DNA of 64,000 nt from a bacterium (GTDB lineage: Bacteria; Electryoneota; JAOADG01), in assembly GCA_963681965.1 (NCBI GenBank), contig OY820579.1, positions 3,456,001 through 3,520,000 of the forward strand, written 5' to 3'. Positions 1-48,228 of the stretch are shown one piece after another. How positions within the stretch are numbered: position 1 is the first letter of the stretch; each line of letters opens with the position of its first letter. Both the position numbers and the translations under genes were made by a program. Under the pieces are notes generated by a model, which made no database searches, was not told the origin of the DNA, and saw nothing but the letters and a program-made list of their open reading frames with translations.

Positions 1-1760
1 CTGCCACCCAAATACGTACTACACAATAGAGATGAACCAGTAGAATTTAGATGTGACAAAAAGCAATCATTCGTACCGCCTCCGTACGTTCGTTGATAAG
101 CTCCGTTGGTGGTAGGAAAATTAGAACTGTTTGTGTTACCTGCTACAAAAACGCCACCAGATCTGTCTCTGCAGATTCCATTTCCAACATCATAATTGTT
201 GCCTCCCAAATATGTACTATATAACAATGAAGAACTCGTACTATCTAAATGGACAACAAAACAATCTACATTACCACCGTTATAGGATCGCTGATAGGCT
301 CCTGAGGTAGTTAATAAATCTGAACTTGCTGTACCTCCAGTAATGAAAATTCCACCTGAACTATCGGAACAAATTCCGGTGCCCCAATCACCACCGTTGC
401 CACCAAAAAATGTACTATACAGCAATGAAGAACCAGAATAATTTAAGCGAGTTATAAAGCAATCACTAGAATACCGATGAGTACTTTGAAGCGCTGTAGC
501 GGTTGTAGGATAGTCTGTACTATAGGTGGAACCAGTTATACAAATACTATAAGCACTGTCCAAACAAACAGCATAACAATTTTCGTCATTTACACCTCCC
601 AGATACGTACTAAACAGCACTGATGAACCTGAATTATTCAAATGAGTAATTAAGCAGTCAAGATGTCCTACATTGGATGTTTGATATGCACCAGTGGAAA
701 CCGGGTAGTTTGTACTATGAGTATATCCCACAACGATAGCTCCACCCGTACTATCGGAACAGACTGCTCTACATCTTTCATCAACACCATCCCCACTCCC
801 CCCCAAATACGTGCTATACACGAGCGGATCGATATAGAGTTGTTTCGAGTGGTCGTAGCCTTGCGGGAAGGTGAAGCCGTATTGGTCGGTGCCATAAAGG
901 ACATATTCGGCCGAAACCGGGACACGCTTGCCGCCGATCATCTGATAGCAGCCGGGGATCGTCTCTTTCAGATTGCCCAGCGACGTGGGTAGCACAATTT
1001 CATTCCGATCGATCGCTAATTTTCCGCTCAATCCTTCCACCTGCCAGCGGATTTGCCCGGCATCGGCACCGGGAGCAACGAACAGGTCGTACTTGACTTG
1101 ATTCTTGAATTCATGATAGACGATGTCGACGCCTTGCCAGACATTTTTGTAGGTGAGGTTGGTGTAGTTCTTGCAGTCCGGTGCCCATTTGCTGCTGTCG
1201 TTTCCGAGAAAGTAGTTGCTGTTCCACGAGAGTGGGTCGGAGGCGAAGATCGCTGCTGTGATCCGTGGGTCGGGCACTCTTGCCCGACTCAGTGAACCCG
1301 ATAAGGAATTGACGGGCAAGAGTGCCCGTCCCACGGAAGAGGGGACAAATCGCCATTTGAGGGCGTGGCTCTTCAGGGGGTAGCGTTGCGGGCGACCTTT
1401 GTGCAGCGGATCGCCAAAAGAGGCGGGCGTATTGCCATACGCCCCTACGGACGGATCCGCGAGCGGTTTCTGGGTGCTGTCCGGTGTTGTGACGACCAGC
1501 GATAAACCATCGTTCTCAAAGAACCAAGTCAGACCGTTGCGCCCTTCCGCCTTGTATTTGACGCGCGCATCCCACTGACCCTTGTTCTCGGTAAAGGCGA
1601 GCGGTTTATCGCTGGATCGGAATAGCGTCTCTACTTGTTTTCGAGCGGCAATTTCGTTTGCCACACTCCAGGCTGAAATACCCAGCAATAGTAACAAAAT
1701 GGCGGGAAGAATTTGTGATATTTTTCTCTTGACTAAATAGGATCGTGTGACACGATTCAT
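1..1760 (-). CDS. SBBP (seven-bladed beta-propeller) repeat secreted protein with FTENKGQWD-type N-terminal domain; 3' end runs off the window
   Basis: Manual translation from ATG at 1760 (MNRVTRSYLVKRKISQILPAILLLLLGISAWSVA...) is open to position 1, so it is absent from the ORF track (no stop). Motifs FTENKGQWD, SNYFLGNDSSKW, YKNVWQGVD, IDPLVYSTYLGG and repeated (Y/F)STYLGG..D blades. Paralog of 44861..47602. Confidence 0.9.
   Translation of the reverse strand, partial: MNRVTRSYLVKRKISQILPAILLLLLGISAWSVANEIAARKQVETLFRSSDKPLAFTENKGQWDARVKYKAEGRNGLTWFFENDGLSLVVTTPDSTQKPLADPSVGAYGNTPASFGDPLHKGRPQRYPLKSHALKWRFVPSSVGRALLPVNSLSGSLSRARVPDPRITAAIFASDPLSWNSNYFLGNDSSKWAPDCKNYTNLTYKNVWQGVDIVYHEFKNQVKYDLFVAPGADAGQIRWQVEGLSGKLAIDRNEIVLPTSLGNLKETIPGCYQMIGGKRVPVSAEYVLYGTDQYGFTFPQGYDHSKQLYIDPLVYSTYLGGSGDGVDERCRAVCSDSTGGAIVVGYTHSTNYPVSTGAYQTSNVGHLDCLITHLNNSGSSVLFSTYLGGVNDENCYAVCLDSAYSICITGSTYSTDYPTTATALQSTHRYSSDCFITRLNYSGSSLLYSTFFGGNGGDWGTGICSDSSGGIFITGGTASSDLLTTSGAYQRSYNGGNVDCFVVHLDSTSSSLLYSTYLGGNNYDVGNGICRDRSGGVFVAGNTNSSNFPTTNGAYQRTYGGGTNDCFLSHLNSTGSSLLCSTYLGG
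1263..1336. repeat. Inverted REP doublet (REPIN-like) inside the SBBP coding sequence
   Basis: CCGTGGGTCGGGCACTCTTGCCCGAC (1263-1288) and its near reverse complement GACGGGCAAGAGTGCCCGTCCCACGG (1311-1336); read in frame as SVGRALLPVNSLSGSLSRARVPDPR. Confidence 0.85.
1425..1448 (-). repeat. GTAG-type REP inside the SBBP coding sequence
   Basis: Minus strand GTAG-GGGCGTAT-GGCA-ATACGCCC, perfect 8-bp stem; read as VGAYGNTP. Confidence 0.8.
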
Positions 1761-1865
1761 GGAGCGCTCCCGATGGCTGAGAATTTTTTTTATCATTGCG
1801 AAAAAGTGATTGCAGAATTTGAAACGATACTATCGCAACAACAGATAAGGATGAAAAAAAATGAA

Positions 1866-13913: not shown

Positions 13914-13942
13914 AGAGGCGGGGACGAAGCTGCCCCGCCTCT
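13914..13942 (-). terminator. Stem-loop / probable terminator between the two giant genes
   Basis: AGAGGCGGGG...CCCCGCCTCT 10-bp stem about 25 bp after the stop at 13968; no strong U-tract. Confidence 0.55.
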
Positions 13943-13967
13943 AGTTATTAATACATACTATGAATTA

Positions 13968-16900
13968 CTATTTGCTCTCATCAAGTTTATCAGGTAATCG
14001 CATGACCGGAATTGTCGGTGAAATCGGTTCTACACTCGAGGACGATGCCCCTTGGTGACAAGTCACTCGATAGAATCCCTTGACCGTTATACCGGGATCG
14101 GTAAAAGTTGTTGTTCCTGCCGGAACGGTTCCGACCAGTGTTCCAACCGATGGAGGTGTGAAATATCCGGATGTGTAGCGCCATACTTGATAATTATTGA
14201 ATGAACCAGTCGAGGCATCCCAAGTCAACGTCGCATTCGGATAGGCATACGAGATTCGGAGATTCGTCGGTGCTGAAGGTGCAGCCAATGAACTGGAAAT
14301 CTCGACATTATCGATAAACAAATTGGAACCATACCCATTTTGCGATCCAAAAAAGAATCGTAGATACTTAGAATTCAAAGTACCGTTACCAAACGGAACA
14401 ACTATATGCCGCCACGACCCGGTTGGTGCCGGTGTCATCCGGGTACCGCCGGTTCCACCCGCCAAGGAGTCATCCCCTGATAGGTCCGATCGTAATGTAA
14501 TTGGAACAAAGACATGGGCGGTGATAGAATCGCCGTAGCTGATGACCAAGTTTAATGCGTCGATCAACCCCGGTTCAGCAACATAACTCAGATCGAACTG
14601 AATGTAAACTGTCGAAACCCCTACGATATTGAAGTACGGTGAATACAGCTCATCTGTCCGACCGATATCCATGTAATTGTAGAAATTGACATACGCACAT
14701 CCATTGTTCGAATTCGCACCGGTATATCTATCCCATCCAATCGCTGCGTCGTCGTTGCTAATTGTCCATTGTTGTGGCGGGAAAGTCGCGCTACTGAAAT
14801 CCTGTAGATACGGTAAGGGCAACCGGGGTAGCATCGTTACAACGGTGTCGAGACCGATACATTCCCAGGATTCGTGATTAATGGCAACCATTCGGATTGT
14901 GTTACTGGATTCGTATGAAATTCCGGAGATGAAATAGTTACTCCACCAGTCCAGAGTCGCTTTTCTACACTGGTTAAAATCGCTTGATAAAATGCCGGAT
15001 TCGGTTACATAATAGTTATTAAAGAGGACATAGTAACGCGTGTTGGAGGGATTGGGTTGAAGCGCGTTGTTGTGTCCGGTAAGGGTTAAATAATGATACA
15101 TGACATTACCGATGCCGGGTACATCCGGTGCCGAACATCCGGTATAGTAGAAGCAATTGGCATATTCGGTGGAATATCCTCCTCGACCAAAGGAATAGAT
15201 TCGATAGGAATAATAGGTGTTGGGAGTCAAGCCATGATCGGTGAAAACCGTCTGATTGGCGGCAACAGCACCCGCAAATTCATAGGGCCCTTCATACGCC
15301 GTTGCCCGGTAGATCGCAAAGGATTCCTCATCGACAACATTGTCGTCCCAGGTCACGACTAGTGTATCGTTATCAGGTCCGCCAGGAGGCAGGACAAATC
15401 GGGCATTGGTCGGAGCCAGCGGTGCAGCGGACGTCATCAATATTAACTGACCCGAGGTGTCGGCTGGCTGAGCGGGATCGAGCGAGTAAGAAATCACCCG
15501 TAACGAATAAGTGTGAGATGGACTTAACCCTCCCAAATGAAATCGCGTATTCGATCGAATCGTAACCAAGTATGGTGTCGACGACCAGGACATATCGGGT
15601 TGCAGGAACAAACGGGTATCGGTATTGAAGAGTGCCGTTAAAGTTGAGGGGTTGTTCGGTTGAAATGGATTATTCCTTGGATAAACCCAGGCTTCCGTGC
15701 ACGTCACCGAGTCGACTACGGGCGCGGGTGAGTTTGACAATCCGGTCAATACGTTATAAACAATCGCGGCATCAGCCGAGACAGTTTCCCCATTGGCGCC
15801 GAAGAAACCGACATCGTAGTAATAATTTCCAGCTCCCATGACGAAGGTTCGAACATCGGATGCAACGAGTGGGATCGTCCCCAGAACATTGAAGTCAGCA
15901 TCTACTCCCGACAACCGATAGCCGACGACATTGTTGGTTGCCGAGGGATCGCTGTCGCGCCATTGAATACCGAATCCAGCAGCAATTGGATACGCATTGA
16001 CCCATCCCGGTGGATTCGGGGTTTGATAGAGTGCAACATCGTCGATAAAGAAATCCGATAGGGCGCTATGCTCCGACAACATTAACCCAACGCGAACAGC
16101 AGCTTGATTGCGCGCTGCAATCGGTAATGCGACTTTCCAGCGTCCCCAGTCTGCGGCAGCCCACATATCGTAAGATCCACCCGTACCGGCATAGAGCGCT
16201 TCCCGAGCCATGCCATTGCCCCATTTCACCGCAAACGGAACCCATGACGCACCATCGTCAAGTGAATACACGAGACTGATTGAATCGTTGTTGACATCGG
16301 TATTGCGTCTAGTAGCGCAATAACGTAGATCGATACAGGCATCGGATACTCCCAACGTCGAAATGGGCGGTAACCAGAAAAAGTCGTTCAACCCATTGTT
16401 CGGTCGGGAACTGATTGGCACTTCCACGATGTAATTATCGGTAATTCCTATCCGTGAAAATGTCTGCGATTGATCCACTGAAGACACGATACGGAAACCG
16501 TGAGCTGAAAGCGAATGATCGAAATTATCATAAAATGGCAGCGGAAGTGTCGTCTGCGGAAGAGCGACAAATGATTGCGATTCCGATACCACCGAGCGAT
16601 CTTCGTTGGACAATCGAAGCGACATCATACCCGGATAGTCCGGTACATAAATCGATCGTGGAGATGTCAATCCATCGAACATAATAAGAATATCATTCCA
16701 CCGGGCACCACCATTGGTAGTAAATTCCAATCTAGCTGGTGCAGCACCGGTAGCTGTCCACGACACACTTTGAGTCGTCCGGACCTGCCAAAACTCACCT
16801 CCGATCGGGCTGGTGAATTGGAAGGGCGGTACTTTCACCTGAATGTTATCGACATACAAAATCGAACCAATCGCATCTGGCGTAACAGATTTAAAGCCGA

Positions 16901-20344: not shown

Positions 20345-20676
20345 GTCGGAATCTATTCCGACTCACATTTTTTAGTGGGGGGCATCCCCGCATGCCCCAG
20401 TTCTTGAATCTTACTTTTCTCTTCCCAAATCCCAACTCCTATCCCCCACCATCCGACTTTTCCGTAAGGGCGAATGGCAGCGCCTGAAGCCGAGAATCCA
20501 CAATCGAATTTTGGTTCGATAAAAAATGATCAAAAATAAAAGCGCAGACTAAAGCCTGCGGCTGCGAAGTACATAAAACAGATACTGATAAGAAACAGAT
20601 ACAGAAATAAGAAAGCGGACTAAAGTCCGCCGCTACTAAAATGATGCAAGATGAGTCGGAATAAATTCCGACCCAC
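20345..20676. repeat. Intergenic REP cluster B
   Basis: GTCGGAATCTATTCCGACTCAC (20345), pyrimidine-rich ~7-nt-period tract (20418-20455), CGCAGACTAAAGCCTGCGGCTGC (20543), GCGGACTAAAGTCCGCCGCTAC (20615), GTCGGAATAAATTCCGACCCAC (20655). Confidence 0.85.
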
Positions 20677-30495: not shown

Positions 30496-31100
30496 TGGCA
30501 CGGGCGAGTGGACCTGCCACTACTGAGGATACAGGATTCATGAAAAGAAAGATCGCGGACTCAAGTCCGCCGCTACCAATCTTTTCCCTATCACCAACCC
30601 CCCATCACCCAAAACTCATCTTTTCGGTGGGTCGGAATTTATTCCGACTCTTCTTGTGGTAGGGGCGGTTCGCGAACCGCCCGTGTTTGTTGAAGATCGA
30701 TTTTAATTCGCAATCAGGGAAATTTTTTTTGCGAAAGGTAAAATATTTGAGCATCATCATCAGTTACGGAAGGACGCGAACGAGCGCCCCTACCAAAAAT
30801 GATTAACAGAAAGAAAGAGTGGGTTGCCACATGCGCCGAACGGCGCATTCGCAACGACAAAATTAAAAGATGGGGATTGGGAGTTAGGTGTTGGGAATAG
30901 GGGAAAGATGAAAAAATACAAGAGTGGGCGGGCATGGGAGCCCGCCCCTACTATAGGATACAGGATTAAAAAAAAACGCAGACTAAAGCCTACGGCTACA
31001 GTGGACAAAAAGCGGACTAAAGTCCGCCGCTACCGATCTTTTCCCATCACCTACCACTCATTCTCCACTACCTCTTCTCTAACACCATTCTCTATCATCA
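30496..31100. repeat. Intergenic REP cluster D
   Basis: REPs at 30555, 30627, 30659, 30772, 30926, 30977 and 31012; TTGC...GCAACGAC hairpin at 30821-30859; G-rich 7-mer tract at 30872-30907; C/T-rich tracts at 30581-30610 and 31040-31100. Confidence 0.88.
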
Positions 31101-44860: not shown

Positions 44861-47602
44861 ATGACTTTCCGTCATTGTACTCTTGATAAATGCTCACTCG
44901 CCTTCGCGACGACGCTTATCTTCGTCCTTACGATCCTGTTCCCGCAAATTTCCTCTGCCGTGTCGGTGCAATCGACGCGGTTGCCGCATCCCTTTCAATT
45001 CACCGAGAACAAGGGACAGTGGGATTCGGCGGTCGTATACAAATGCGAGGTGCGGCGCGATGGCTTCACGTGGTTCCTTGAGCGCGATGGTGTCACCCTC
45101 GTCACCTCGGTAATCGATTCTTCTTCTTTGGTAGGGGCAACGCCGCCCCCGCTGGGGGTTCGCGAACCGCCCGTATCCGTTAATGATGCACGATTCGATC
45201 CCAATGGTCGTATCCATCATTCCCGTTTAAAATCCCACGCGCTCAAATTTAAATTTGTCGACTCCCGTAGGGGCGAATCGCATTCGCCCCTATCCGATCA
45301 AGATGCACCAACCAATATGGGCGCGTCCGCGCCCACAGGGCGAATGCGATTCGCCCCTACGGATAAATGCACGACACAAAAGGATGTCGGAATAAATTCC
45401 GACCTACGAAAATACGCCTCAGCGAAGTGGATTGATGCACAAGGGGAATTATCGTGGCACAATAATTATTTTCTCGGGAATGATTCCTCGAAGTGGGCAC
45501 CGGATTGCCGCAATTTTACGCGCTTGATGTATCATGATGTCTGGGAAGGAATCGATGTCGAATTTTACGAAAGCAAAGGTCATCTCGAATTCGATTTCGT
45601 TGTACATCCCGGTGCCGATCCGAAACAAATCAAGATGGTGTGCGAAGGATTAGAAGCTCCGCTTTCTTTTGATACTCGGAGGTGGGACTTTAGTCCCGCC
45701 ACATCATTTAATGATTCAGGAATGGCGGGACTAAAGTCCCACCTCCAGAAATTATATCTACCCACCTCCCTCGGCGAACTCCGGATGTCGATTCCGGGAG
45801 CATACCAAACCACTGCGAATGGCACACGCGGAACTGATGTAACGGCACAATTCACACTCGTTTCAGAAAATCTCTTCGCGCTCGATTTGCCAAATGGGTA
45901 CGACCCAACCCAAATGCTGAGGATCGATCCGCTGGTGTATTGTACGTATTTGGGGGGTGGTGGAAACGATTACGGAGATGGCATCGTCGATGATGGAAGC
46001 GGGGGAGTCATCGTTTGTGGTTGCACAAACAGTTTCGATTTTCCAGTCACTGCCGGAGCCATCGATGTTAGCTACAATGGCGCATCGGTAGGTACTGGCG
46101 ACTGTTTCGTCACAAGAGTAGATAGTACATTTTCTCAATTGATTTATAGTACTTTTCTCGGTGGACCGGGTGACGATCGCGCAGAAAGTATTGTCAGTGA
46201 TTCTTTGGGCAATAGTACAATCACCGGATATTCCGGCTCGCAATTCCCTACCACTATTAATGCATATCAAAGGTCATATAATGGGGGAGAGCGAGATTGT
46301 TTTGTCTCGCGATTAAATAGCTCTGGATCGAGATTAGTTTATAGTACCTATATCAGTGGTAATGGCTATGATGATGGACATTCCATTCTGGCTGGTGATA
46401 GTGGAAGTGTATTTATCGGAGGTGGTACCAATAGTCCAAATTTTCCGACGACTGAAGGCGCATATAACACGACCAATTATGGTGGATTTGTCGTTCATTT
46501 AAACAATACCGGTTCTGGTCTGATCTATAGCACTTTTCTCGGGTTTAGTCCGGAATTATGGTCGATAGCATCAGATGGTTCGGGGGGGATACTTGCAACA
46601 GGAAGTGCGATCTCAGGACTATATACAACCCCCAATGCGTTCGATACGACTTATAATGGCGGTGAAACCGATGCATTTGTACTACGCTTGAATTCGACCG
46701 GCTCGCAGTTGCTGTACAGTACTTATCTCGGTGGTTCCGGCGACCGTGAATGGGCAGTTGGGATTACAGGTGATGGAAACGGTAACTGTTTTGTAACAGG
46801 TTCTACTACCAGTCCCAATTTTCCAATTACAGTCGGTGGGTTTGATACAGTCTATAACGGAGGCACCACAGTTATCGGTGATTGTTTTATTTCATATCTC
46901 AACAGCACTGGATCGAATCTTTTATACAGTACTTATCTCGGTGGTTCTGGTGAGGATGCAGGTAGGGGAATCCTGTACTATGCTGATACTAGTGTTACCA
47001 TTGTGGGGGGAACAAAGGGTACTGACTTTCCAACTACAATAGGCGCTTATTCAGAACACCTTAACGGTACAGGAAACTGTTTTGTAACTCATCTTAAAGT
47101 CAATACATCTCGATTAATTTACAGCACGTATTTTGGTGGTACAGGCAGCGATGTCGCTTATGCATGTATGAAACACCATTCTGATGGAATCATTTTTACT
47201 GGTATTTGTGGACCTGGTTTTCCAACGACACCGGAGGTCGGTGACACGAGTTACAATGGTGGTACTGATGGCTTCATCGCGCGTTTGACACTTATTCCTG
47301 ACTCATCAGCCAGTACACCGGAACGATTCATACAACCATCCGGTTTCGCTTTGGCGCAGAATTACCCTAATCCTTTCAACGCTACTACTACCCTCTCCTA
47401 TTCTCTTCCGACCACATCTCACGTCGATCTTCGTATCTACGATCTGACCGGTCGTGAAGTCTCGACACTCATGCAGCGCGAGCAGCATGCCGGCACCTAT
47501 CGCGTGCTGCTCGATGGCTCGCGATTAGCGAGTGGAACGTACTTTGTGCGATTGCAGGCGGGTATGTTTTCGAAGACACAGAAGATCGTGTTGCTAAAAT
47601 AA
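44861..47602 (+). CDS. SBBP repeat secreted protein with a T9SS type A-like C-terminal domain
   Basis: FTENKGQWD, NYFLGNDSSKW, IDPLVYCTYLGG, about seven YST(Y/F)(L/I/F)G blades, QNYPNPFN...SGTYFVRL...KIVLLK; RBS AGGAG. Confidence 0.92.
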   Translation: MTFRHCTLDKCSLAFATTLIFVLTILFPQISSAVSVQSTRLPHPFQFTENKGQWDSAVVYKCEVRRDGFTWFLERDGVTLVTSVIDSSSLVGATPPPLGVREPPVSVNDARFDPNGRIHHSRLKSHALKFKFVDSRRGESHSPLSDQDAPTNMGASAPTGRMRFAPTDKCTTQKDVGINSDLRKYASAKWIDAQGELSWHNNYFLGNDSSKWAPDCRNFTRLMYHDVWEGIDVEFYESKGHLEFDFVVHPGADPKQIKMVCEGLEAPLSFDTRRWDFSPATSFNDSGMAGLKSHLQKLYLPTSLGELRMSIPGAYQTTANGTRGTDVTAQFTLVSENLFALDLPNGYDPTQMLRIDPLVYCTYLGGGGNDYGDGIVDDGSGGVIVCGCTNSFDFPVTAGAIDVSYNGASVGTGDCFVTRVDSTFSQLIYSTFLGGPGDDRAESIVSDSLGNSTITGYSGSQFPTTINAYQRSYNGGERDCFVSRLNSSGSRLVYSTYISGNGYDDGHSILAGDSGSVFIGGGTNSPNFPTTEGAYNTTNYGGFVVHLNNTGSGLIYSTFLGFSPELWSIASDGSGGILATGSAISGLYTTPNAFDTTYNGGETDAFVLRLNSTGSQLLYSTYLGGSGDREWAVGITGDGNGNCFVTGSTTSPNFPITVGGFDTVYNGGTTVIGDCFISYLNSTGSNLLYSTYLGGSGEDAGRGILYYADTSVTIVGGTKGTDFPTTIGAYSEHLNGTGNCFVTHLKVNTSRLIYSTYFGGTGSDVAYACMKHHSDGIIFTGICGPGFPTTPEVGDTSYNGGTDGFIARLTLIPDSSASTPERFIQPSGFALAQNYPNPFNATTTLSYSLPTTSHVDLRIYDLTGREVSTLMQREQHAGTYRVLLDGSRLASGTYFVRLQAGMFSKTQKIVLLK
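45131..45176 (+). repeat. Interrupted GTAG REP inside CDS
   Basis: GTAGGGGC[AACGCCGCCCCCGCTGGG]GGTTCGCGAACCGCCCGTATC; without the 18-nt insert it equals the intergenic copy at 47654 including the GTATC tail. Confidence 0.8.
45266..45407. repeat. REP doublet plus a second-family REP inside CDS
   Basis: CGTAGGGGCGAATCGCATTCGCCC (45266-45289) / GGGCGAATGCGATTCGCCCCTACG (45338-45361), perfectly inverted; inner TGGGCGCG..CGCGCCCA hairpin; then GTCGGAATAAATTCCGACCTAC (45386-45407). Confidence 0.9.
45678..45746. repeat. REP doublet inside CDS
   Basis: GGAGGTGGGACTTTAGTCCCGCCA / TGGCGGGACTAAAGTCCCACCTCC, a perfect 24-bp inverted pair. Confidence 0.9.
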
Positions 47603-47615
47603 TTCATATTGTGAA

Positions 47616-48228
47616 GTAGGGGCGGGCTCCCACGCCCGCCCGCATATTTTTTGGTAGGGGCGGTTCGCGAACCGCCCGTATCGCCTGAAGGTTGCACAAA
47701 TTTTAATTATATGCACGGGATATAACAGCATTATTTTAATTGTGAATCCGATTACGATCGTTTATCTAGATCAGACACGGGCGGTTCGCGAACCGCCCCT
47801 ACCAAAAGATAGATTGCAACATCCGACGCTTCGCGTCGTCCTCGCAACGACATATCAGGAGACAAGATTCAAGAACAGATTGCCACGTCAGGTGCTTCGC
47901 ACCTTCCTCGCAATGACAAATCAGGATACAAGATACAAGACGCAGGCTCGGAGGCCTGCGCCACCAACAGAATAGGGATTGGGTATTGGGTGGTAGGTGT
48001 TGGGAAAGGAGAAATAAACACGGACTGAAGTCCGCCGCTACCACAGATTTCAAGATTCAAGAATAAAAACGCAGGCTGAAGCCTGCGGCTACAAAAGAAA
48101 AAATGAGTAGATTGTGACATGGACCGAATTACGCATTTGCAATGGTAGATCAGGATAATTGATCAAAAAGATGCCGAATCGGAATTCAGCAACAGTGCAA
48201 GATCAAAATGAGTCGGAATTGATCCGAT
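47616..48228. repeat. Intergenic REP cluster F
   Basis: REPs at 47616, 47654, 47779, 47942, 48021 and 48070; two GATTGC...GCAA(C/T)GAC hairpins (47811, 47877); G-rich 7-mer tract at 47975-48010. Confidence 0.9.

Follow-up and report, generated by a model that had tools for sequence, protein, structure and literature searches.

Palindromic elements within a secreted-protein gene

The window analysed here is a stretch of 64,000 nucleotides (nt) of contig OY820579.1 (positions 3,456,001 to 3,520,000, assembly GCA_963681965.1) from a bacterium of the Electryoneota, whose genome is a single 4.24-Mb contig; coordinates are those of the window unless called genome positions. Our subject is a coding sequence (CDS) on the forward strand, 44861-47602, which forms one open frame of 913 amino acids (aa) with a signal peptide, a DUF7948 domain, SBBP beta-propeller repeats, and a C-terminal sorting domain of the type IX secretion system (T9SS). 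Three separate sites within its DUF7948 region are occupied by repetitive extragenic palindromes (REPs) or related palindromic elements, and, as the initial annotation had stated, the frame stays open through all of them.

Pfam searches matched the product to DUF7948 (PF25778) with an E value of 4.4e-40 and 138.5 bits (gathering cut-off 27), to SBBP with 3.4e-11 and 43.4 bits (cut-off 20.5), and to Por_Secre_tail, the T9SS sorting domain, with 6.2e-11 and 42.9 bits (cut-off 27) at residues 835-910 (47363-47590). The DUF7948 domain (44999-45940) has 314 residues as compared to a profile length of 214, and inserts in three of its loops cut the profile match into three stretches, which is a practical warning for the annotation of such genes. 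AlphaFold2, run with a 66-sequence alignment, predicted a confident beta-sandwich (mean predicted local distance difference test score, pLDDT, 81.3; 188 of 314 residues at 90 or above), and pLDDT was low only at the three insert sites (residues about 41-75, 88-138, and 225-250). The inserts are thus modeled in low-confidence loops of a confident fold, in line with the surface-loop placement anticipated earlier, and the REP-encoded stretches are probably disordered loop peptides. A Foldseek search of the DUF7948 model against the PDB gave no match at an E value of 0.001 or better. The best Z scores from VIA-align were 8-9.4, a range near background by the tool's own notes, and the top matches at these near-background scores were sandwich domains of polysaccharide lyases, GH15, GH92, and GH97, the periplasmic domain of YidC, and a lysosomal transporter chain.

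All elements lie on the forward strand. The first site (45132-45178) holds a REP of the GTAGGGGCGGTTCGCGAACCGCCC family, read as LVGATPPPLGVREPPVS, which is laid out as GTAGGGGC at 45132-45139, 18 extra nt at 45140-45157, and GGTTCGCGAACCGCCC at 45158-45173. The split by 18 nt had been described correctly, while the start had been placed at 45131 and GTAG begins at 45132. The uninterrupted 24-mer is found in the window at 30659, 47654, and, on the minus strand, 47779, and shuffled versions of the window gave no match. The family has 62 perfect extragenic copies in the genome, and its uninterrupted form occupies site 1 in six paralogs of the gene. The split REP itself folds no better than shuffled sequences (z 0.03).

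Nested mini-inserts were also observed elsewhere: besides the 18 nt in the site-1 REP (45140-45157), a site-2 REP carries 24 nt at genome positions 446681, 886252, and 4032514. The two insertions are in different REP families but share one position, immediately behind GTAGGGGC(G), and 14-mers spanning the 18-nt insert have two to three further occurrences outside the paralogs.

At the second site, a doublet spans 45265-45362 and has the organization of a REPIN, that is, of an inverted REP doublet forming one long hairpin. Its perfect 25-nt inverted arms (45265-45289 and 45338-45362) belong to the GTAGGGGCGAATCGCATTCGCCC family and are separated by a 48-nt spacer that contains its own palindrome, GGGCGCGTCCGCGCCC; the doublet folds at -41.6 kcal/mol (z -9.7 vs shuffles) and is read as SRRGESHSPL...GRMRFAPT. 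The same site holds a second element (45386-45407) composed of the hairpin GTCGGAATAAATTCCGAC (45386-45403) and CTAC, which represents the GTAGGTCGGAATTTATTCCGAC family in reverse and is read as VGINSDL. Exact copies of this hairpin lie at 20655 and, on the minus strand, 30631 of the window; in the genome, it is present at site 2 in 15 paralogs and as 78 extragenic copies.

The third site (45678-45746) is filled by another REPIN-like doublet, with perfect 24-nt inverted arms GGAGGTGGGACTTTAGTCCCGCCA (45678-45701 and 45723-45746) around a 21-nt spacer, read as RRWDFSPATSFNDSGMAGLKSHLQ and folding at -31.6 kcal/mol (z -9.7 vs shuffles). The paralog at genome position 1889428 has this doublet in common, and a related intergenic copy at genome positions 524990-525054 is 78-83% identical over 69-72 nt. 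Outside the paralogs, 14-mers of the site-1 and 45386 elements were found at least 60 times, those of the site-2 arms 10-29 times, and those of the site-3 arms only 2-3 times. Thus, the site-3 element is a low-copy relative of the GTAGCGGCGGACTTTAGTCCGCC family rather than an abundant REP, and because its arms have GGAGG for GTAGG, we consider it a head-variant relative of GTAG-type REPs. The other elements are of the GTAG type proper, as seen from GTAGGGGC at site 1, GTAGGGGCGAATCGCATTCGCCC in the site-2 arms, and the terminal CTAC at 45386-45407.

Paralogs with individual loop inserts

A DUF7948 profile search of the genome returned 63 stretches, corresponding to 27 loci and one fragment. 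Twenty-one of the 27 loci are intact, with frames of 853-2961 aa, a signal peptide, and the FTENKGQWD motif, and most show breaks in the profile match at the same positions. Twenty of these 21 copies have at least one REP, REP cluster, or longer palindromic element in frame at the three loops; the divergent intact copy at 1620327 has no REP. The insert peptides are recurring modules that represent translations of REPs, and the peptide length between anchors ranges from 25 to 82 aa at site 1, from 16 to 147 aa at site 2, and from 12 to 76 aa at site 3. The longer palindromic element, of about 210-230 nt, is found at site 2 in eight copies and at site 3 in others, and has an intergenic relative at genome positions 3871604-3871819 (75% identical over 226 nt). 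The median aligned identity among paralogs is 77% in the N-terminal domain vs 41% in the C-terminal (SBBP) part.

The window contains the 5' part of a second, divergent paralog (1-1796, minus strand, DUF7948 at 822-1595), whose 2961-aa frame runs off the window. The initial annotation had presented this copy as the empty state. This is correct for site 3, and site 2 is REP-free as well; however, the paralog is not REP-free overall, as the GTAG REP GTAGGGGCGTATGGCAATACGCCC lies in frame at site 1 (1425-1448, minus strand). Empty alleles were found at site 1 in the copies at 2952906 and 1275917 and at site 3 in 2952906 and the second paralog of the window; they align cleanly with the filled ones, and the empty loop resembles the loops of relatives.

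Could these N-terminal regions be decaying or untranslated, as pseudogenes, mis-called starts, or fortuitous frames, or could the inserts be assembly artefacts? Six of the 27 loci are broken, the genome contains two further paralog remnants, and GC-rich REPs are poor in stop codons, which makes open frames cheap. However, the 21 intact frames run from the signal peptide through all three sites to the T9SS tail, and the inserts are preceded by the conserved FTENKGQWD motif. As the initial annotation had expected, every insert length in the intact copies is a multiple of 3; 15 different lengths occur at site 1, 15 at site 2, and 8 at site 3. Core diversity among 16 paralogs is strongly codon-periodic, with values of 0.053, 0.027, and 0.317 at codon positions 1, 2, and 3. 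As to artefacts, the genome is assembled as a single contig, and a contig from a public short-read run (X1) spans 45662-45790, including site 3, without differences. We regard decay or misassembly as very improbable. In five public runs from two studies, parts of the window were present as short contigs ending in paralog repeats, and the joints seen in such contigs (e.g., 45255 to 45366) match alleles of other paralogs. REP-bearing paralog genes thus break short-read assemblies, which should be kept in mind in practice.

Three of the six breaks are out-of-frame changes within REP inserts: a frameshift within the long site-2 element (3754312), an out-of-frame collapse of the site-2 doublet (557347), and an out-of-frame loss of the site-3 doublet at a locus where an ORF (open reading frame) resembling those of insertion sequences (IS) has taken the place of the 5' end (1543281). 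The remaining loci have a nonsense codon (1401636), a frameshift in the SBBP region (1902614), or are truncated (4181269). Out-of-frame insertions, which the initial annotation had named as an argument against its own proposal, are therefore present, yet they are confined to pseudogene copies. Because REP events do break frames, the intact copies are survivors, which points to a selection filter rather than to a mechanism that guarantees the frame.

The insert DNA is nearly unique to each copy, with 23 of 24 alleles distinct at site 1, 23 of 24 at site 2, and 22 of 24 at site 3, and 25 length combinations among the 27 copies. The core sequence is mosaic: among 20 paralogs, 60% of informative site pairs, and 53% of those at most 20 nt apart, fail the four-gamete test, and a permutation test modeled on the pairwise homoplasy index (PHI) gave p 0.002. 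Copies sharing the same insert architecture at site 1 or site 2 are no closer to each other in their flanks (0.141 vs 0.145). Two paralogs have site-1 inserts that match an intergenic cluster of three REPs (genome positions 915258-915374) with 88-91% identity over 117 nt; multi-REP blocks thus move, or are converted, as units. A further apparent intergenic match to site-1 and site-3 inserts (907846-908145) proved to be a degenerate paralog remnant and not a REP cluster. Mapping of breakpoints from the correlation of pairwise distances between adjacent core segments was discarded, since the correlation was near zero everywhere, even within uninterrupted segments, and cannot localise breakpoints.

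In-gene REPs in this and related genomes

The contig contains at least 770 units of GTAG followed by a perfect hairpin, in dozens of families, which agrees with the high copy number of GTAG-type REPs. A first census of non-overlapping units of this kind counted 754, with 631 intergenic or partially overlapping a gene, 58 in the ORFs of the paralogs, and 65 in other predicted genes, the last being mostly single-copy chance hairpins. When only hairpin families with at least four copies were considered, the total was 786, including 674 intergenic hairpins, 59 in the paralogs, 16 at gene edges, 14 straddling gene ends, and 23 in the interior of other genes. These 23 consisted of 12 internal to IS elements, four in a gene resembling those of REP-associated tyrosine transposases (RAYTs), and the rest in weak or 5'-over-extended ORFs. 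A tolerant census, which allowed up to three differences to 31 families, yielded 1142 matches, of which 1008 were intergenic, 75 in the paralogs, 44 at gene edges or in weak ORFs, and 15 straddling, with none in the interiors of other well-supported genes. The predicted enrichment of REPs in the DUF7948/SBBP family thus amounts to 75 vs 0 in well-supported interiors, and a similar REP density in other coding sequences, which would have spoken against the proposal, was not seen in any of the three censuses.

Several candidates did not withstand inspection. REPs that seemed to be inside the genes 13914-16454, 441812-443029, and 2272510-2276166 precede plausible start codons, in ORFs that are extended too far at their 5' end. 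A mask of repeated 14-mers also picked up IS elements and other genes present in several copies, and the hairpin-family censuses were used in its place. About ten loci (e.g., 1278456-1279266 and 2686817-2687627) contain IS-like genes present in multiple copies, about 810 nt or about 996 nt long, whose internal hairpins are conserved. The orientation of REPs showed no clear pattern with respect to replichore or strand.

Within the family, the positions are fixed, as had been proposed: all 59 perfect family hairpins fall at the three sites (55 mapped by anchors and four, in broken copies, placed by eye), and none of them in the approximately 2 kb of SBBP and tail sequence of the paralogs. Neither the perfect-hairpin nor the tolerant census found a REP-family hairpin in the T9SS tail of CDS 44861-47602. 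If site, oriented hairpin, and frame are taken together, the hairpins fall into 19 different combinations. Plus orientation at site 1 and minus orientation at site 2 are both seen in one family, and three families occur at two or three sites. This diversity requires many independent or transferred events.

RAYT genes, a search for which the initial annotation had suggested, were detected as matches to NF047646 at four loci: 529684-530088 scores 93.8 bits (cut-off 80), and weaker matches lie at 526681, 1138340, and in a split gene at 345571-346341. The genome thus contains both REPs and RAYTs, and these RAYTs are putative mobilisers of the REPs.

The RAYT-like gene at genome positions 345517-346362 (plus strand), outside the window, contains four in-frame REP hairpins GGGAGGGCTCGTGAGCCCTCCC at a spacing of 84 nt, and matches NF047646 in pieces with 68.8 bits. 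The hairpins lie between what we take to be an HUH-type motif and the C-terminal Tyr region. It is the sole gene without DUF7948 that was found to carry in-frame REPs.

DUF7948 was found in five of 20 related genomes. The nearest homologues of the protein are 44-50% identical and come from an uncultured metagenome-assembled genome (MAG), while Caldithrix proteins are about 35% identical. In three relatives from three genera, in-frame REPs occupy the same loops, each genome having its own REP families. In a genome from the same family but another genus (G003), sites 1 and 3 of the paralogs are occupied by in-frame GTAG REPs, and the gaps reach about 700 nt; a genome of the same genus (G001) has one in-frame REP at site 2; and in a Caldithrix sp. 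MAG (G014, locus L012), site 3 contains an in-frame palindrome of 28 nt, GTAG...CTAC, and there are other hairpins as well. These in-frame REPs are members of multi-copy families in their own genomes, one REP of G003 having 41 copies. Matches to a generic GTAGGGGCG...CGCCC pattern numbered 392 in the genome studied here (G000), 196 in G003, 82 in G014, 57 in G001, and 17 in G018, and a reversed control gave 0; G018, with the lowest count, has mostly uninterrupted DUF7948 domains, 13 in number, which hints that loop occupancy follows the REP load of a genome. At site 2, the G003 paralogs (L081-L086) have tandem low-complexity coding repeats of GEGxKVK and QSFSTLHPTPYTLH units, which are not REPs, the REP clusters being at sites 1 and 3.

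The extreme positional restriction raises the question of whether the RAYT and REP machinery prefers some DNA target or structure present at the three sites, so that preference rather than tolerance would place the REPs. The nested insertions just after GTAGGGGC(G) in two REPs even suggest that REPs themselves serve as targets. However, the empty alleles at the three sites have no motif in common, and the loops, which across genera are the least conserved portions of the domain, were nevertheless struck in several genera by different REP families; moreover, ancestral loop sequence was replaced and not merely interrupted. Targeted insertion therefore appears improbable.

Hairpin conservation, interpretation, and precedents

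The hairpins inside the reading frame are nearly invariant. A common site-3 allele of 114 nt contains two hairpins, in which only 2 of 41 columns are variable among 16 paralogs. At third codon positions, 2 of 14 vary within these hairpins as compared to 98 of 127 in the flanking core (Fisher's test, p 5.7e-6, a value that overstates the case because the paralogs are not independent), and free variation resumes only about 10 nt outside the hairpins. Neither hairpin has an extragenic copy, the sole matches outside the masked paralogs being a broken paralog and a remnant. Similarly, 1 of 18 columns of the VGINSD hairpin at site 2 is variable among 16 paralogs. Invariant third positions cannot be explained by selection on the protein, and we thus read them as a sign that the hairpin itself, as DNA or RNA, is under selection or is preserved by some maintenance process.

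We favor, with a probability of about 0.68, the explanation that REPs nest in permissive loops, are filtered by selection, and are shuffled among paralogs. As part of this explanation, CDS 44861-47602 would be a real, translated member of a group of about 27 T9SS-secreted DUF7948-SBBP proteins. The three inter-strand loops of the N-terminal beta-sandwich would have become heritable "nests" for the extragenic palindromes of the genome, holding GTAG-type REPs, REPIN-like doublets, multi-REP clusters, and the palindromic element of about 210-230 nt. REPs may have arrived in the loops by their usual spread, either RAYT-mediated or recombinational. Once seeded, the nests may have grown and turned over like intergenic clusters that resemble bacterial interspersed mosaic elements (BIMEs), with the nested 18- and 24-nt insertions and the stacked REPs as possible pointers. 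Purifying selection on the reading frame would have purged the frame-breaking events, roughly two thirds of the total, and gene conversion among paralogs would have shuffled the cassettes, giving almost every copy its own loop combination, while selection at the DNA or RNA level would keep the hairpins.

Several points weigh against this explanation. Translation of the inserts is deduced from open frames and codon-position diversity, the paralogs are non-independent samples, and the censuses rest on a crude, home-made gene model (2858 genes covering 86% of the genome). Filled alleles replace some of the ancestral loop codons and are not pure additions, so that clean transposition is not demonstrated. 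Tolerance alone leaves unexplained why other genes with flexible loops, the RAYT-like gene excepted, host no REP. Last, the near-invariant hairpin arms point to a function or maintenance at the nucleic-acid level for which the explanation does not account.

The initial annotation had spoken of a "landing pad" whose "loops are diversified by REP traffic." As the enrichment, fixed positions, in-frame lengths, loop placement, and RAYT genes on which it relied were all found, both expressions stand as descriptions; an adaptive diversification "system," however, is not shown. Under that proposal, the nests would be kept because they create and shuffle variation in the surface loops of T9SS-exported proteins, e.g., to counter phages or to vary binding, with the hairpins as recombination or insertion signals. 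It would account for the near-unique loop combination of each copy, the pervasive mosaicism, the decoupling of insert architecture from flanks, and hairpin arms that are more constrained than synonymous sites, as well as for the filling of the same loops by different REP families in three other genomes and the near exclusivity of in-gene REPs to this family. However, we have no evidence of a benefit or of programmed switching, nor for a dedicated enzyme encoded close by; loop diversity could be neutral. Variation is near zero only within the hairpins and rises within about 10 nt, unlike what is expected of conversion tracts centred there, and the out-of-frame REP events that killed copies argue against a frame-preserving mechanism. 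We therefore consider such a device unlikely.

A broader version of this idea, which we regard as somewhat unlikely, is that the nests are selectively maintained rather than merely tolerated, either because T9SS-exported proteins co-opted REP/RAYT traffic to generate loop diversity or because the intragenic hairpins regulate their mRNAs. It rests on the invariant in-ORF hairpins as compared to near-saturated synonymous sites, on the reoccupation of the loops across genera by lineage-specific REP families, and on the individual loop set that REP turnover and conversion between paralogs give to each of about 20 surface proteins. As each paralog has its own signal peptide and start, the family differs from the silent cassettes of cassette-type antigenic variation.

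Palindromic elements in frame within protein genes have been seen in other bacteria; Rickettsia palindromic elements (RPEs) are said to have been reported as such by Ogata et al. in 2000. According to the background given by Di Nocera, De Gregorio and Rocco (2013; PMC3733652), in the portion covered here, these are selfish palindromes that lie in frame in genes whose products are probably still functional. RPEs are longer or CGTC-tagged, reside in an obligate intracellular host, and are scattered over many genes, and the covered portion of that account links them neither to RAYTs nor to a single gene family. The elements described here are GTAG-tagged and do not belong to the CGTC-tagged or RPE families; the likeness is one of behaviour only.

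The closest precedent in kind is the main subject of the same paper. Its covered portion describes intragenic GTAG- and CGTC-tagged REPs, including GTAG-headed stem-loops that lie singly, in pairs, or in clusters wholly inside ORFs and add amino acids to the products, with clusters encoding 43-82 aa; in-frame REPs as such were thus already described. Its authors suggested that insertions in linkers or loops are neutral and that REP-inactivated genes are lost from the population. As far as that portion goes, those REPs affect many unrelated proteins, notably of replication and repair, and their sites vary by gene except for recB in Xanthomonas. Here, in contrast, one family of secreted paralogs receives many REP families at three fixed loops, with up to 147 aa between site anchors and recurrence across genera.

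The elements also resemble REPIN, RAYT, and BIME systems (Nunvar 2010, PMC2817692; Bertels 2017, PMC5581495; Park 2021, PMC8049555) in their inverted doublets, many families, RAYTs, and stacked clusters. In the covered parts of these papers, families are numerous, copies run into the hundreds, REPIN populations persist over the long term, and the elements are extragenic, whereas here doublets and clusters lie within an ORF and are inherited with a gene family. For Caldithrix abyssi, the covered part of the genome paper (PMC5317091) speaks of no more than one intergenic, REP-like motif of 18 nt. Our literature search, which did not extend to the list of target ORFs in Additional file 3 of PMC3733652, returned no report of REPs concentrated in one paralogous family, in DUF7948 or SBBP proteins, or in T9SS cargo. 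Events of this type are known; the confinement to one family, the three fixed loops, the combinatorial form, the recurrence across genera, and the invariance of hairpins within ORFs look new. REPs are usually deemed extragenic and their in-gene copies scattered accidents, while nearly all in-gene REPs of this genome are in one secreted family. It therefore offers a natural system for asking whether tolerance or targeting limits the spread of REPs into genes, whether a nucleic-acid function of REP hairpins survives within an ORF, and whether selfish palindromes provide raw material for surface-loop variation.

Two further palindromic features were noted at the 3' end of the gene. An imperfect 12-nt inverted repeat, CGAGCAGCATGC / GCGTGCTGCTCG, lies at 47479-47513 within the coding sequence of the T9SS sorting domain and is outside all census REP families. 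Just 3' of the stop codon, an extragenic REP cluster (47616-47811) combines GTAGGGGCGGGCTCCCACGCCCGCCC at 47616-47641 with two inverted copies of the site-1 family, at 47654-47677 (plus strand) and 47779-47802 (minus strand), which lie within arms of 38 nt with 95% complementarity, separated by 91 nt.

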